Of a stretch of DNA of 64,000 nt, positions 48,251-55,904 are shown piece by piece. The number at the start of each line of letters is the position of its first letter. Positions within the stretch are counted from its first letter, which is position 1. The position numbers were made by a program, and so were the translations under genes. The notes beneath the pieces were generated by a model. The model made no database searches. It was not told the origin of the DNA and saw nothing but the letters and a program-made list of their open reading frames with translations. The DNA lies in the NCBI RefSeq assembly GCF_021869535.1, contig NW_026262745.1:35836001-35900000 (forward strand). The letters are read 5' to 3'. This stretch comes from Mytilus californianus (lineage: Eukaryota).

Positions 48251-48599
48251 GCCGTGGCGGGTCAAGGATAGGGCATATAGGGCGTATACCATAAGACCCA
48301 TAATGAAATTAAAAATTTAATGTTTCTTAGTATTTGTATATTTTTTTATCATAAAATCGTTCCCAAAAGATTCATCTCCCTCTGCTCGGCAGTATTTATC
48401 ACATTTTGGGGAATTACGCTCTTTTTCAAAAATCCGGGATCCGTTCCTGATTTGCCTGAATTTAGGACAAAGAATATTATTTTTTTCCGTATTTAAAAGT
48501 TTAGAAATGTGTTGATTCTAAAAAACAAATCTTTCATCACTAAAAGAAAATAAATATCAGAAAAGATTAAAGGTGTAATTCACTTATTTATTTGTCAGT

Positions 48600-49156
48600 T
48601 GTAATGGCCTGACCATTAAGTATAACCGACGATTGGGCTCAAGTAGAAAAGACTATCAGGTGCTGATACTTTAATTATGAACCAATCTTACATATGGTGA
48701 AAAGCTGAAATACAAAATAAAATACAAATTTACAATGTGTAGAATTAATGTTAAGATGAACGAAATGTCAAATATAATTAAAAGCACAGTCCGTTTAATG
48801 CGAGAAAATGTTGTACTTCCTAGAACGGTTAAATTTTCAGTATTTCACGGAGAAAAGGTTCAAATATACGAAGAGCAATTTGAAGGCTTCAAATACAATG
48901 TTATATAATTAACTCACTCTGTGGTTAGCCACAAATTGTGTCCAAGATGACGTCTCTACCAAATATTCCTTGTGATCGTAATGACCTTGCAGTTTTCCTG
49001 TAACGGATACGTGTGAGAAAGGGAAAGGTAGCGATGATACGATGTTTTAATGTTCTTATCAGGTTAAAGATGAATAATCCTCCTAGACTGGAAAACATAA
49101 ACAGATTAAGAATATAATCAAACGAGCTATAAATTGAGGAAAGGCGTAACAGAATA
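48600..49156 (-). repeat. 3' LTR (557 bp)
   Basis: Direct repeat of 53446-54004; preceded on the minus strand by PPT GGGGAG (49162-49157). Confidence 0.93.
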
Positions 49157-51259
49157 CTCCCCGTCTGATGTCTTTCTGAAATCACTATTCCATAAATTAA
49201 TCGCATATGAACATATGATAAATAAATAAATCCCAACATAAATTGAATATGTACAGGTGAAATGTCCACTTTTGATCGTGTGAGAAATATCAGGTCTCAA
49301 CTTACGACTTTTCACTATAAAGTTTCCTGAATAAATATATCCCCGGGAAACTGGGTTTGGCACAGTTTCGTGTCCTTTAAAAGAAGGATGTCTCGGATGA
49401 GATTGTTGTGTTCTGTAGAATGTTCTATTACTGCTGTATCGATAATAGGAACTGTTTTCTCCAACCTGGTAAGACGGCGATATCCTCCGGTAAGTATGAC
49501 GGGAGTTAGTACTTGATCCTCGTCCGATTTGGCGAAATGTCACATCTTTGTGAGTCTCAGACGAAATAAAGCGTTTCGTCCTAACGTTCCATCCTGCGGA
49601 TCTAGTCGCTCTATCTGTAAGGTGGCGTCCTCGATGTTTAATTTTGTCGTAGTAATGTCCCACAAAGGGTGTTGCTTTGTGATGGTGTCCAGATAAGACC
49701 ACTGGTTCCTTTTCACTAATATCCAAGTTAGACTTGGCGATATTGCTTCCTACTCGGAGCAGATGTTGATTGTTCACAGGCAGATTGAAATTGGCAATCG
49801 GTCCTTCTTTCGGAATAGATTTGTGAATGCGACTGATTGCCTCTCCATGAACTTCAGGTCTTGTTGATTTCGGAATGAAATTTTCTTCATCCATAGAATT
49901 TTCTATAGAAGTCACAGATTCTGCTTTTAGTGAAACGAGTGCTGTCCCTTTAGAAAAATTCTTGAGTTCACCAGATTTGGCACTAGATCCAGTACACTCA
50001 AGGAATTGTATGGAGTGCATTTTTGCAACCTTCACATCTGAATTTAAGTTTTGGTAGTTTTCTTCACCAACGATTGGATATTCGTCCTTGACGGATATTT
50101 CCGGTCTTGAGGCGTTGAGAAGTTGTTCTGGTTTCGTGATTGAAACGTTAGTTATCTTTGTGTTGACTTCAAGCGTAACAGTTTGCTTGTCAATGTATGT
50201 ATTTCCAATTATGACCCAACCAAGTTTCAATTTTTGGGCAAATGGAGTTCTGGATGGTCCTAGGCGTTGTTCAAGGACGTGATGTGTCTCTATAAGGTCT
50301 CTTCCAATTAAGAGTAGAATTTGGCAACGTTCCTCTATCGGTAGAATGCTTCCTTTGAGTTCTTTTAGATGAGGATGATACATTGCGACTTCAGGTGTAG
50401 GAATTTCGTCTCGATTATTGGGAAAATTATAACATTCAATTAATGTAGGCAGATTAAATTGTACGTCACCATGTACAGATTTTAAGACGAAATATTTTCC
50501 TCTTTTCCCGGAAGTAGCTACTCTGCCGGAGCATGTTGCAAGAGAGTAGTTTTTAGGTTTTTCCCGAACGTTGAACAGATTGAAGAATTCAGGCGAGGTA
50601 AGAGACCGGTTGCTTTGATCGTCAATGATGGCATACATCCGGATAATTTTGTCTGTCCTGTCCTTGTGGTACACATCCACAGGTAATATCTTGGCACAAG
50701 ATTTCTCACTCTTAGGATCTTTGTGGATCTCTGTGCAGGTTGAACTCACAGAGGTTAACTTGATTTCAGCCGATTCTGTTGGCTCCCCGCTGTAGGTTTG
50801 TCTGGGCGAGCTAGACTGAGAACTTGCAGGTTGCTGTGGTCTAGTGATGTGAAGTGCGGTGGTATGTCGTTGACTTCCACACTCATTACAACTTATGCTT
50901 GCGTTGCAGTCCCGACTTCTGTGTGTGGTTGACTCACAACACTTGTAGCACACATTGTTCTGTCTTAACAGTTCTTTGCGTTCCTCGATTGATTTGGCTC
51001 GGAACGCTCGGCATTCATTCAAGGGATGCTTTGTCTTGTGTACGATACACAGATCTTGTTGTTGACTGCTGTCTCCAGTTTGCTGTTCAACATCCGTCTT
51101 ATGGACGTTGACTTTAGAGTAGGTCTGAGGTGTGAACTTTGGCGCAGCACCTTTTGTATTTGGTGTGACTTTTGACTCAAAGATGAAACCAGGATCGTTC
51201 TTTATTTTTGCTAATTTCCCTGATGAAGGCAGAAAATTCTGTGAAAGGCGGAAAGGCAA
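49127..51259 (-). CDS. BEL/Pao Gag knuckles + aspartic protease + Pol remnants (RT/RH and IN core deleted)
   Basis: CIVHKTKHPLNEC, CYKCCESTTHRSRDC and CNECGSQRHTTALH; YAIIDDQSNRSL and LLLIGRDL; degenerate LLRVG..EKEP..HH..HYYDKIKHRGRH; joined to Gag by a one-base shift at T5 (51205-51209). Confidence 0.8.
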   Translation of the reverse strand: MPFRLSQNFLPSSGKLAKIKNDPGFIFESKVTPNTKGAAPKFTPQTYSKVNVHKTDVEQQTGDSSQQQDLCIVHKTKHPLNECRAFRAKSIEERKELLRQNNVCYKCCESTTHRSRDCNASISCNECGSQRHTTALHITRPQQPASSQSSSPRQTYSGEPTESAEIKLTSVSSTCTEIHKDPKSEKSCAKILPVDVYHKDRTDKIIRMYAIIDDQSNRSLTSPEFFNLFNVREKPKNYSLATCSGRVATSGKRGKYFVLKSVHGDVQFNLPTLIECYNFPNNRDEIPTPEVAMYHPHLKELKGSILPIEERCQILLLIGRDLIETHHVLEQRLGPSRTPFAQKLKLGWVIIGNTYIDKQTVTLEVNTKITNVSITKPEQLLNASRPEISVKDEYPIVGEENYQNLNSDVKVAKMHSIQFLECTGSSAKSGELKNFSKGTALVSLKAESVTSIENSMDEENFIPKSTRPEVHGEAISRIHKSIPKEGPIANFNLPVNNQHLLRVGSNIAKSNLDISEKEPVVLSGHHHKATPFVGHYYDKIKHRGRHLTDRATRSAGWNVRTKRFISSETHKDVTFRQIGRGSSTNSRHTYRRISPSYQVGENSSYYRYSSNRTFYRTQQSHPRHPSFKGHETVPNPVSRGYIYSGNFIVKSRKLRPDISHTIKSGHFTCTYSIYVGIYLFIICSYAINLWNSDFRKTSDGEYSVTPFLNL

Positions 51260-53198
51260 CTTCGTATTTAGACTTGTATCTTGAAGTCCTTGTTATCCAC
51301 TTTTCTTGGAGTCCATATGGCAGTTTTTCTACAATTGGATTTATCCCGGACGAAGAGTCGAAATAAGCTAGCAAACATCCCAGCTTGGGATTTTCTTTGT
51401 GATACTCTATTTCTGAGATAATATCTGACAAATCGTACAGGAGTGAGTTGTCTTTATTTGTCAGTGTTGGAAAGTTGGCAAGTTTGTTGACGAGAGACGC
51501 CTCCAACATTATTGGAGAACCATATCGGTCGTTTAGTCTCTCCCATAGTCTGTGTAGGCCCCTTGTTGGGTTGTTGGCATTTGATGCCCTTATACTCATG
51601 GCATGTTTGGCAGACTCTGGTCCAAACCATTTAATAAGTAGGTGTATTTGTTCCGAGTCTGAAACTTGTAATTCATCTATGACGTTTTTAAAACTGGCTT
51701 TCCATGTATGAAAGGATTCTGCCTGGTCGTTAAAGCTTGTAAGCCGGGAGAACAGCAGGTCCTTGCGTAGGAGAAATCTGGTTATCTCTAACGTAGGATT
51801 GATTTGTTGCAGGTGTGCAGAAGGGGTCTCTTCTATAACGCCTTGTTTTTTGTGTGAGACAGGGATCTCTTCTATAACGCCTTGTTTTTGTTGTGAGACA
51901 GGGATCTTTGCTGAAACGCCCTGTTTTCCTATGCCAGTTACTGTTCCCAGATCTGGGAATACATTAACTTCTGCTGACTTAGCATGTGCAGGTAAGACAG
52001 CAGGTGTCTGTGACGGCAAGTTCAATGCCACGGATGGTACGAACTCAGGTGCTTCATGACTTAGCTTTACAGGAGTTTGTTTTCTCTTTAGAGGGCCTGT
52101 CACTTCCTGTTCGGCGGTTGGTACAGGATGTTTGTTTATGAAATCTTGCACACGCTGGAGCGGGTCTTCTGTTTCGTTAGGGAGATCGCTAAATGCTTGG
52201 CTGCCATCGTATTCCAGGATACGAGCCTCGGCTTCTGCGGCTGCAGCTTCTCTCTGTGCTTCGAGAAGGTTCAAATTGGCCTTTAGTTCAGCCTTTTCCC
52301 GGCGTACACGTGCAGCCTCTTGTTCTAGTTGAGCTTTTCTGCGAATGGCTTCTTGTTCAAGTTGAGCTTTCCTTTGTGCTGCCTCCTGTTCCATTTGAGT
52401 TTTCAGGTACGAGGCCTCTTGTTCTATTTGAACTTTTCTTTGTGCAGCCTCTTGTTCCATTTGAACTTTTCTATGTAAGGCTTCCTGTGTTGCTTGAATG
52501 GCTTGTTGCTCCATTTCAGCTTTGATTTCAGTTTGTCTGAACAGAGCCTGTTCCTCCAATAATGCCTCTTGTTTAATGATCAAAGCATGTTTTTCGGCAA
52601 AGGCTTTTTTTGACTTAGCAGCCTCTGCTTTGGCACGCTTCCTCCGTGCTAGGCTTGACATATCAAAAACATTGGAGCTTCCGCTGTGTGAGGTGTTCTT
52701 ACTCTTGGAAGTCCTCGTTTTAGTGGATTTAGCCGTTGTCAGGGCGAGGCGGTGCTCGTGTAATGTTTCCATGACCAGGTCCACTTTGGACAGACGAATA
52801 TCTGTTGAAAGGTTACATGTATCAATGTCTTTAAGACTATTCAACGTTTTGGTATTCTTCAGAAATATCAGGTACTCGTCTATGAGCCTGCGATAATTAG
52901 TACAGGCGTGTAAGATTTTGTCCTGTGCTGTTAGCAATTGCTGCAGCTCGCTAGGAGGCGTGGCCACTTCCTATAACTGGAATTCAATACTTGACCAGAG
53001 AGCCTCTAGTTCTTGATATAACTTGTCACGTTTTTCGGTGTATGCTCCTTTACCTTTATCCGTGAGTTCACGTACTCGCCTAGTCTCGGGATTATCATCT
53101 AAATGCGTGATATTAGATGGATTTTCTAATAGTTCCCCAGAAACATCTCCCTCTGGGGGTTGAACCTCATCTTGCTGTTCCACGTGACTGGGATGCAT
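51177..53198 (-). CDS. BEL/Pao Gag, N-terminal part (one in-frame TAG at 52971-52973)
   Basis: The 75-aa and 596-aa ORFs are in the same frame; coiled-coil EQEA repeats; LLFSRLTSFND..FHTWK..LWERLNDRYGS..INPIVEKLPYGLQEKW. Confidence 0.8.
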
Positions 53199-53445
53199 GA
53201 TGGCTCAACGTTGTTGGGTTGCTGCTTGTACACACAAGTTATGTTGCGTACTGTCGATGTAACAGGTACGAGCGATGCTACGTTGTCGTTCCTTGTCTGG
53301 ATATGTATAGACAGGTTGTCGTCAATTTACTGTACGTCAAGGGGTGACGCGTTCTTGCAGGGCTAAACAGGCAGGTTGTAGCTGTAGAACTGACGTGGAG
53401 TGGCGTTATCTGTGAGACACAACAGGCAAGTTGTAGACTTTTTAC

Positions 53446-54004
53446 TGTAATGGCCTGACCATTAAGTATAACCGACGATTGGGCTCAAGTAGAAAAGACT
53501 ATCAGGTGCTGATACTTTAATTATGAACCAATCTGACATATGGTAAAAAGCTGAAATACAAAATAAAATACAAATTTACAATGTGTAGAATTAATGTTAA
53601 GATGAACGAAATGTCAAATATAATTGAAAGCACAGTCCGTTTAATGCGAGAAAATGTTGTACTTCCTAGAACGGTTAAGTTTCCAGTATTTCACGGAGAA
53701 AAGGTTCAAATATACGAAGAGCAATTTGAAGGCTTCAAATACAATGTTATATAATTAACTCACTCTGTGGTTAGCCACAAATTGTGTCCAAGATGACGTC
53801 TCTACCAAATATTCCTTGTGATCGTAATGACCTTGCAGTTTTCCTGTAACGGATACGTGTGAGAAAGGGAAAGGTAGCGATGATACGATGTTTTAATGTT
53901 CTTATCAGGTTAAAGATGAATAATCCTCCTAGACTGGAAAACATAAACAGATTAAGAATATAATCAAACGAGCTATATAAATTGAGGAAAGGCGTAACAG
54001 AATA
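53446..54004 (-). repeat. 5' LTR (559 bp)
   Basis: Differs from the 3' LTR by 5 substitutions and one 2-bp indel; minus-strand ends TATTC...TTACA; followed by GTAAAAAG rather than a TGG-type PBS. Confidence 0.93.
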
Positions 54005-55904
54005 TCAGTACTGCATACTTTATGTATTAATTAATTTATTATTCAATTTTGTTTATTTATTTAACTTACATGTACATGCACATTGCAATATTTATATAAT
54101 CTGGCATGATGTATGTACTGTACGAGGACACATTACATATCTTTACGGTTACAGTATGACTACAAATCTTTCAAATTATAACTGCCCTACCTGAATAATA
54201 ATCTAGATGTAGTATACAATCTATTCGAAATAAACGTCAACCAGAAACACTCCTATTCCACATTATTTGATATAGTTTTGTTTTGATCGTATAAAGAAGG
54301 TATAGAATCAAGGCTTCCTCATCTTAAAAGTGGAGTCATTCTTTCGATAGTTTTATTTACGCCATTAATTTGAACTACCGTTATGGAATACATGTTTAAC
54401 ACATGGCCGCTGATGAGCAACACTATTTTCCTCGATTGTAACATCACCGAATGCGACTTGTATCATAATTTTACTTCTAATGAGTGACATGACAGGTGCC
54501 ACAAGTGGAGCGGAAACTTCCTATCCTCCATGACCATATGAGATCAAAAAAGGTAGTTGTTGGATCGTGTTACACACTATTCAGCGTTCAATGGTTTGTT
54601 GACTTGTTTTTTTGTTCTTTAGTCTATAGTTTTGTCTGCCTGTCTTTTACCTATATTTCTTGTTTTAAAAACTGAACAGCCATATTTCTAAAACAATCAA
54701 GTTATGGGAATTTGAGAAAGGCTATGACCCCAGCTCACTAACAACAGTCTGGTGTATATAGTCCTCAGATATGTATTAGAAAAGTCCTTACTTAATCATA
54801 TAGCGGTATATTGATTTTTCTTGTTTATGTAATAACCTTGATTACATTTAGAACAGTTTGTCTGGTAAACACATGTTGTCTGGTTATTAAAGTGCCTCTA
54901 ATCTTTTCTCTTCCTATGTTTAGCCGCGAGATGTCGACAGCCTTCATCAGAATACGATTTTAAATACCTTGAACTCAGGGAAGTTTTAACAGTTCAGTCT
55001 TCAATGATAAAGTAATCAAATATGACGCAATTGTGACAGTGAACATTTACTTCTGGCAAATTACAATGTACTCTTAAACTCTTGAAAAATATATATCATA
55101 ATATTATTTAGTTAATTTTCAATAATCTATTTTGTTGGGGATATATATATAAATTGTTGTTTTGCTTTTATATCTATATTCATATTTTTGGAAATTCTAA
55201 TTTAATCTTATTTACATTTTGAATTATATTTCTGTTGTTAATAAACATACTTTTTATAATTTTGTTTAGCTTACAGATGTAATTTGACTAATACTTTTCA
55301 TAAACTATGATTAACAAGTTTTGATGTCTAATCATCACATGAAGACAACCGTATAATATATCAACTGATATTTATGATTAATATTGACGAGTAATAACAT
55401 CCCCTTACTTTCAAAATTGCATTGTGGTTTAGCAGTTGATAAGTCCTTTCAAACACGTTTAAGTCTCTTAAAAAGCTCAGGACAGGTCTCGTCTAACTGA
55501 ATACCCCCTGCCCAAATATAACTTCCGTTTTAACTGCCATAAAACATAGTTTGGGAATTTGTTTATTATTTCATGAAATTTCCAAATTATCTTTAGGTGA
55601 GCGTACTAATTAGTTTCATACTTGCGAAATGAATACATTTGTAAATTTTGATATATCGAGCCCCTTTTTATTCTTTATTGTATAAGCTATGTTTTAAGAA
55701 AAGTGTTTTCAAAAAGGTTCAAAAATAGATAGATAAATGTTCAATTATACACACGATGTTTTAAAAAACACATACAAAGATCGTATGATAAAAAAAAGTA
55801 TTAACAAAAATACGGAACTCTTAGGTAAATTCAGAAAAGGGGGGGGGGGGGGGGGGGAAAGCCCCTAAAAATTGACAACATCAAACGTTAGACTTCATCA
55901 ATCA

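Follow-up and report, generated by a model that had tools for sequence, protein, structure and literature searches.

A broken young copy of a long-lived Gag-protease BEL/Pao family in Mytilus californianus, with a probable full-length helper and a probable splice-built primer

The window analyzed here is a 64,000-nucleotide stretch of the Mytilus californianus genome (assembly GCF_021869535.1, contig NW_026262745.1, positions 35,836,001 to 35,900,000 of the forward strand), and coordinates are positions within it. It carries a BEL/Pao-type element of 5405 bp on the minus strand (48600-54004), bordered by the target-site duplication (TSD) ACTGA. We consider this element probably a broken young copy of an old, still-spreading BEL/Pao family that keeps Gag and protease, likely borrows the enzymes it lacks from a full-length relative (the “helper”) in the same particle, and likely begins reverse transcription from a self-primer built by splicing. 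An earlier, sequence-only reading had drawn the element at 49127..53198, which misses the leader, the 5' long terminal repeat (LTR), and most of the 3' LTR. In the order of transcription, its parts are as follows.

54005..54009: TSD, 5' side (ACTGA on the minus strand)
53446..54004, minus strand: 5' LTR, 559 bp, TATTCTGT...CATTACA
53764..53766, minus strand: predicted self-primer, upstream 3 nt, adjoining the splice donor
53551..53763, minus strand: 213-nt GT-AG intron in the 5' LTR (GTGAGT ... pyrimidine tract CAG)
53543..53550, minus strand: predicted self-primer, downstream 8 nt, adjoining the acceptor
53435..53445, minus strand: primer-binding position, GTAAAAAGTCT, without TGG
53199..53434, minus strand: leader, with a second motif resembling a primer-binding site (PBS) from 53330, like the start of the helper leader
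51177..53198, minus strand: gag, comprising an N-terminal part, coiled-coil repeats, and capsid core (DUF1759, E 1.9e-5)
50849..51049, minus strand: triple Cys-His box of Gag
50159..50701, minus strand: aspartic protease, IIDDQS ... LLIGRD, retroviral protease fold predicted
49511..50131, minus strand: decayed but in-frame remains of the linker after RNase H and of the integrase zinc-binding region (matching helper residues ~1591-1807)
49262..49510, minus strand: out-of-frame remains of the C-terminal region of integrase (matching helper residues ~2050-2130)
49157..49168, minus strand: polypurine tract (PPT) TCAGACGGGGAG, identical in the helper family
48600..49156, minus strand: 3' LTR, 557 bp, with the twin intron at 48705-48917
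48595..48599: TSD, 3' side

The two LTRs (53446-54004 versus 48600-49156) differ by the 5 substitutions and one 2-bp indel counted before. Gag starts at 53198 and, as also read earlier, contains one stop (in frame, 52973-52971) and one frameshift (in an A-rich run near 51200-51210). Both breaks are private to the window copy, so this copy was broken after insertion. DUF1759 was the sole Pfam match of the element. The motifs YxDD, VHVFG, DxFGP, SDRG, and GGxWE appeared in none of the six frames of the internal region, while all five are present in the helper open reading frame (ORF), which bears out the loss of reverse transcriptase (RT) and the integrase core. In the zinc-binding remnant, the HHCC cysteines indeed read D and F, and the first His additionally reads Y. 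A second frame spans 721 codons from stop to stop and ends at 49127. The proposal of a 710-aa frame open through the PPT into the 3' LTR therefore holds for the window copy apart from its length, but we rejected it as a family trait; among 15 short-element copies with a readable protease frame, only this one runs through, while the other 14 stop 145-711 nt earlier. The C-terminal remnants WRKQFL and DILLLKD are present as described, but they lie in two other frames, outside the long one.

The helper, represented by copy L040, has a 2138-codon ORF with PF05380, DUF5641, RT (YVDD), and an integrase zinc domain. The window element matches helper residues 1-992 (~79%) and ~1591-1807, plus out-of-frame scraps of 2050-2130. 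The deletion proposed at about 50085 is real, but its position is better placed at ~50140. Homology to the protease stops near 50150, and that of the remnant is clear only from near 49960; since the first 66 residues past ~50140 score no better than shuffles (42 versus a shuffle maximum of 46), 50085 falls inside an uncertain zone. The second junction, expected at about 49516, was placed at ~49511-49523. Pol decay is older than the insertion, as had been suggested, with a synonymous divergence (dS) of 0.76 between remnant and helper compared to an LTR-LTR distance (p) of 0.009. Several helper copies have identical LTRs. Its PPT and the first 8 bases of its LTR are the same as in the family of the window element (“family A”). 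Most helper LTRs are not alignable beyond these bases, but seven RT-bearing elements have A-type LTRs at 78-88%. The LTRs of family A and the helper start with TA rather than TG, and those of the helper (L040-L045) end in TA rather than CA; 5-bp TSDs are normal.

Family A, as analyzed in this genome, comprises 51 copies in which Gag and protease are retained but RT, RNase H, and the integrase core are missing. Searching the genome at the DNA level turned up 58 matches in the 39 candidates scored out of 418, most of the matches being colinear over the entire internal region. A search with the tail only matched 40 of 40 scored candidates (of 122), and because every candidate scored was matched, the copy counts are lower bounds. 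We dropped L030, L036, L047, L078, L079, L092, L093, and L099 as partial or decayed, as well as L020, which is the same insertion as L018; L122-L125 are not part of the counts. L018 and L020 share TSD and flanks and are likely a segmental duplication. Likewise, L088 and two neighbors on C121 are similar copies at 11-kb spacing that are likely segmental duplications and not new insertions.

Junction 1 is spanned in 46 of the 51 copies and junction 2 in 42, with six of the nine misses at junction 2 belonging to a subfamily with other LTRs. A perfect 5-bp TSD was found in 23 copies, and all 23 are different. Nearly all of the first 30 loci have the termini TATTCTGT...CATTACA (TA...CA, not TG...CA). 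Within 27 of these 30 loci, LTR-LTR p is 0.002-0.052, while LTRs of different copies are 80-96% identical; several sublineages therefore moved recently. The deletions also occur in assembled contigs of an independent sequencing run. Outside this genome, five proteins from M. edulis and M. galloprovincialis (P0002-P0006) have the same build without RT and RNase H and are 75-81% identical to the family A frame over their length. Four of them fall within the A clade of a quick protease tree (support, 100). For the helper ORF, identity is 89% with the M. edulis counterpart and 99% with an entry from a third Mytilus species. Either the A deletion lineage predates these Mytilus species or it moved between them. 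With the deletions common to dispersed copies and Gag-protease not evolving neutrally, the replicating, non-autonomous lineage proposed from the sequence is almost certainly real.

Selection was measured within family A as the ratio of nonsynonymous to synonymous change (dN/dS) by pairwise codon counts, using only states present in at least two copies (“shared”) and treating single-copy states as “private.” Shared dN/dS was 0.16 in the gag N terminus, 0.12 in the capsid core, and 0.14 in the zinc knuckles. The protease gave 0.35 (0.23-0.53) compared to 0.08 in the helper, and the two parts of the tail gave 0.63 (0.36-1.28) and 0.71 (0.50-1.02), the latter being the integrase remnant. Neither of the findings that would have spoken against the sequence-only reading, deletions confined to this copy or neutral evolution of gag-protease, appeared. 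Private changes had a dN/dS of 0.68-1.02. Branch estimates with P0011 and P0012 as outgroups were 0.06-0.07 on the A branch versus 0.06-0.09 for the helper in the capsid core, 0.23-0.27 versus 0.05-0.08 in the protease, and 0.62-0.72 versus 0.06-0.11 in the remnant.

The protease escaped Pfam and PDB sequence searches and was recognized via its predicted fold only (predicted local distance difference test [pLDDT] score of 88.6; retroviral proteases in 48 of 49 listed fold matches). DDQS is retained in 46 of 51 A copies, and the IIDDQS ... LLIGRD variant is also found in the helper and in distant relatives. The protease likely works in the replicating copies.

In the tail, codons 998-1202 hold 52 private breaks (17 stops and 35 frameshifts), while over codons 998-1198 no break is common to three or more copies and two stops occur in two copies each. 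One frameshift at codon 1199 is common to seven copies. Given the 190 shared and 373 private base states of the tail, simple arithmetic predicts about 26 shared breaks. Thus, the dead tail is near neutral in sequence, yet its frame is kept open in replicating lineages. For gag, 15 stops each occur in two to four copies; the frameshifts that several copies have in its repeats (codons ~227-253 and 760-780) appear to be alignment artifacts and were left uninterpreted.

A second, younger Gag-protease deletion family (“family B”) is present in the same genome. A search for it gave 23 full matches out of 24, and 18 copies were analyzed; its members include L060-L072, L074, L031, L032, and L055. The internal regions are 3.8-4.0 kb, there are 14 distinct TSDs, and 9 of 18 copies have an unbroken frame of 1165-1212 codons. 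A homolog in M. edulis (P0019) is 80% identical over its full length. Families A and B have a common capsid variant: they are 92-94% alike in this region, compared to 82-84% for most helpers.

We defined an exchange tract as at least 250 nt at 96% or higher identity. Helper tracts were found in 9 of 51 A copies and in all 18 B copies (up to 1706 nt at 99.2%), almost all of them in the leader and the 5' half of gag, and B tracts were found in 30 of 51 A copies. L033 has A LTRs around a B protease, and the protease of L055, a B element, is partly of the helper type. Gag tracts have therefore been swapped among A, B, and the helper. Co-packaging in mixed particles, as proposed for cattle ERVK elements, would account for this. 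Further mosaic or full-length elements with A-type LTRs are L076/L126, L121, L132, L135, and L136. The N-terminal region of Gag (codons 1-200) exists as several alleles about 80% alike, shuffled across A, B, and the helper.

No A, B, or helper element that we read has TGG after the LTR, a test for TGG only that did not search the host tRNA set; ARAGORN found no tRNA in the window, and no genome-wide tRNA comparison was made. Instead, the first 8 or 9 post-LTR bases of A and B are complementary to a site that lies 96-101 nt upstream of the LTR end, and subfamilies differ there by compensating changes. This site sits directly behind a pyrimidine tract and AG. Every reference LTR has a GT-AG intron ending there (window, 53763-53551). 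Exact loss of this intron from both LTRs was seen in L009, L021, L032, and L049 among 160 LTR copies spanning the region and, as a fifth case, in L131. At the PBS position of the window element, 11 of 11 bases are complementary to the splice junction, compared to 8 (9 with a G-U pair) for the unspliced LTR. The 11/11 pairing was found in 52 of 70 readable A, B, and helper elements (83 examined, 13 unreadable). The A and B leaders have about 115 extra bases ahead of the second PBS-like motif, which matches the helper leader start (53330 in the window).

Similar pairing extends beyond these families. From 31 elements tried, 29 had clean ends; 15 of these pair over 11-14 nt and 2 over 10 nt. The 12 without a match comprise 8 with a tRNA-type TGG, 2 with mis-set ends (11-12 nt on re-reading), and 2 with one mismatch each. 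As controls, cross-family pairings reached 11 nt in 3 of 796 cases and shuffles reached 10 nt in none of 1160. A FastTree phylogeny of RT-RNase H, covering only families from this genome (26 rows, 2 omitted; rooted at the midpoint; long branches flagged), places the splice-type elements in a single clade (support, 99), apart from the tRNA-type elements. A first metagenome scan and a viral-contig scan gave no match. Among 23 upstream regions of relatives (metagenome contigs, with one match from a genome contig), 4 had the pairing on the forward strand and none on the reverse strand. In folding of four natural intron-less copies, helix probabilities were mostly >0.85; with the intron retained, the helix covered 9 bases in A and did not form in B or the helper. 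The junction thus pairs 11/11 with the post-LTR bases and covaries between families. By analogy with self-primed elements, this pairing probably serves as a splice-built primer. A metagenome contig (L217:6178-7800) has gag-protease homology and a splice-type primer site with no RT within 4 kb downstream; it is possibly another deleted element, and no LTR pair was found for it.

RNA data on the intron come from family B. Reads of copy L060 contain a GT..AG joint that skips 293 nt and equals the exact LTR intron, with 12 reads in four of four runs (1, 1, 7, and 3) from two studies, the shorter flank of the joint being up to 48 nt long. In run X21, the B tail was covered on one strand. For the window, three raw runs, each sampled at ~6%, gave reads mostly less than 95% alike, and the A-specific tail was thinly covered. 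One RNA joint on the window (48643-53288) does not correspond to the LTR intron and was disregarded.

These observations suggest how the elements may move. The same deletions are present in dispersed copies that have TSDs of their own, and the LTR intron, which is spliced from RNA in B, would be spliced in A as well. As in Tf1, helper RNase H might cut behind the paired stretch, from which RT would extend. The spliced 5' end would serve as template for U5 and R only, and the remainder of the LTR would come from the normally unspliced 3' copy, so that the intron would be inherited. If the 3' copy were spliced too, both LTRs would lose the intron, as in the five elements above. Translation through Gag, protease, and the dead tail may favor packaging of the element's own RNA, as reported for mouse IAP I-delta-1, and the gag swaps may arise by template switching in mixed particles. 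On a broader scale, we lean toward a model in which an entire BEL/Pao branch builds its RT primer via the host spliceosome and retains the intron because splicing affects the 5' copy alone. In this model, mussels harbor at least two long-lived Gag-protease cheater families with a dead open tail, their own capsid variant, and gag N termini traded with the helper in mixed particles.

Several points weigh against the reading of a still-spreading Gag-protease family with a splice-built primer. Particles, proteins, protease activity, and primed cDNA are things we infer from sequence and analogy. The A protease is only partly constrained, changing at about 4 times the helper rate; its dN/dS interval nearly touches that of the remnant, and its fold matches are individually weak (best E 2e-3). 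A frame of at least 1150 codons is unbroken in only 1 of 51 A copies. The window copy has no recent tract in common with the helper, and shared tracts could instead stem from DNA-level conversion. Of the readable elements, 18 of 70 pair at less than 11/11 (6 at 10/11, 6 at 7-9, and 6 without a donor or acceptor match), 19 of the 23 upstream regions had no match (14 regions were too short; misses were unchecked for a complete LTR), and the unspliced A LTR already pairs over 8-9 nt and folds onto the site. For family A, no splice joint was listed among the 69-164 window reads of each raw run. The B joints, which are not assignable to the 5' or 3' LTR, might derive from intron-less genomic copies; because such copies could yield them, these reads establish transcription of the joined form but not its place of origin.

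Some of these points invite other explanations. The family could be non-autonomous with a protein that does little, its gag constraint imported by recombination and its frame open only for RNA stability or translation-coupled packaging. The gag mosaic among A, B, and the helper fits this, and part of the gag constraint may well be imported, since gag segments are exchanged with the helper. The relaxed protease fits as well, and so does the tail, whose near-neutral yet open state shows that a frame can stay open without a working protein. However, the A-type protease is in none of 29 RT-bearing elements, which makes import a hard explanation for a shared dN/dS of 0.35 with DDQS in 46 of 51 copies, and the capsid core changes no faster than that of the helper. 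We regard this explanation as unlikely. A similarly unlikely proposal is that the family works as outlined above except that the LTR-PBS pairing is a structural switch for packaging or translation, with another RNA, such as a tRNA fragment, as the primer. Priming is itself deduced, host tRNA fragments lay outside our comparison, and some reads carry an upstream exon of 48 nt or more, so the predicted primer is not at the RNA 5' end as it is in Tf1. Yet the pairing begins at the first post-LTR base, runs for 11-14 nt, spans the splice junction, covaries across deep families, and is found in none of 8 TGG-type families.

The host might alternatively keep the short elements as Gag-based brakes on the helper family, so that they would not be mainly selfish. 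Ty1 p22 is a Gag-based brake of this sort, and both the capsid variant common to A and B and the presence of the build in three Mytilus genomes would suit such a role. We consider it very improbable, since the copies are dispersed, of many ages, and decay neutrally after insertion (private dN/dS as above; 50 of 51 A copies without a full frame), and no conserved host locus was seen, though no search aimed at one was made. That the deletions are a one-off accident or an assembly artifact of the window copy has next to no probability and is refuted by more than 40 copies with different TSDs, by the proteins of other species, and by the contigs of the independent run.

The Gag-protease family, with its probably borrowed RT, resembles several known systems in part. 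BEL/Pao elements share its triple Cys-His box, DUF1759 capsid, LIG protease motif, and single gag-pol frame; the triple Cys-His box is given as a BEL/Pao hallmark in the available part of PMC554778, and mollusc BEL/Pao clades are covered in that of PMC6238403. It differs in having no RT, RNase H, integrase core, or tRNA site, and its catalytic motif, like that of the helper, is DDQS rather than LLDSG. Gag-only elements are also known from zebrafish. The likeness to plant TR-GAG elements that the sequence-only reading drew is apt as an analogy, covering the LTR-PBS-gag-PPT-LTR build, multiple copies, a 5-bp TSD, and the lack of RT and integrase. Membership was rejected on protease and size, since TR-GAGs, as far as the available text of PMC4350172 describes them, were chosen as Copia or Gypsy types of <4 kb without an aspartic protease (the TR-GAG1 partner was not found there). 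By comparison, the window element is 5.4 kb with a BEL/Pao Gag, an animal host, a constrained protease, a dead in-frame tail, and a partner.

Mouse IAP I-delta-1 elements likewise have an internal deletion that leaves one open gag-pol fusion frame and need enzymes in trans, and the fusion is reported to aid mobility in cis (PMC6466679, available sections). They are retrovirus-derived and have lost part of gag, whereas the mussel family keeps all of gag and the protease and spans several host species. Defective and competent morphs of cattle ERVK[2-1-LTR] C/D recombine, which was read as co-packaging (PMC10924933, available sections), but the D elements have no intact ORF, while mussel Gag-protease is under purifying selection. 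Self-primed reverse transcription is described in the accessible portions of PMC7175516 for Tf1/Tf2 and of PMC6317226 for the plant Tcn1 and TAR lineages. As with Tf1, there is no tRNA site (here, a lack of TGG only) and the PBS pairs with 11 bases supplied by the RNA of the element itself. Unlike in Tf1, the predicted mussel primer is split by a spliceosomal intron and lies inside the transcript instead of being contiguous, and the element is BEL/Pao by its domains, not Ty3/gypsy or copia.

Neither a non-autonomous Gag-protease BEL/Pao family, a form which the sequence-only reading had not met in bivalves, nor a splice-built primer was found in the literature searched, which did not extend to Repbase, Dfam, or subscription journals, any of which may include these families. 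A term look-up gave no PBS or priming text in the available parts of PMC554778, PMC3118150, and PMC8556966; that of PMC3601003 mentions hairpin priming for chromoviruses only, and those of PMC10886601, PMC3286476, and PMC10294476 hold nothing on a Gag-protease BEL/Pao form. The mussel elements offer a natural three-party system of one helper and two Gag-protease cheaters in which per-domain selection and partner exchange can be read from sequence, along with genomic and RNA support for a tRNA-free start of reverse transcription dependent on host splicing. If true, such priming would account for the missing primer site of many BEL/Pao elements, tie mobility to splicing control, and show how an intron can persist in the terminal repeat of a retroelement.

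Two further observations concern relatives in other hosts. In the shrimp Palaemon, an element (P0012, P0014, and P0015) has 68-75% identity with the mussel helper polyprotein, more than oyster relatives have, which suggests possible horizontal transfer. BEL/Pao polyproteins also occur in Sedimenticola-named bacterial metagenome-assembled genomes (L219-L221 and P0023), where they are probably animal host contamination.

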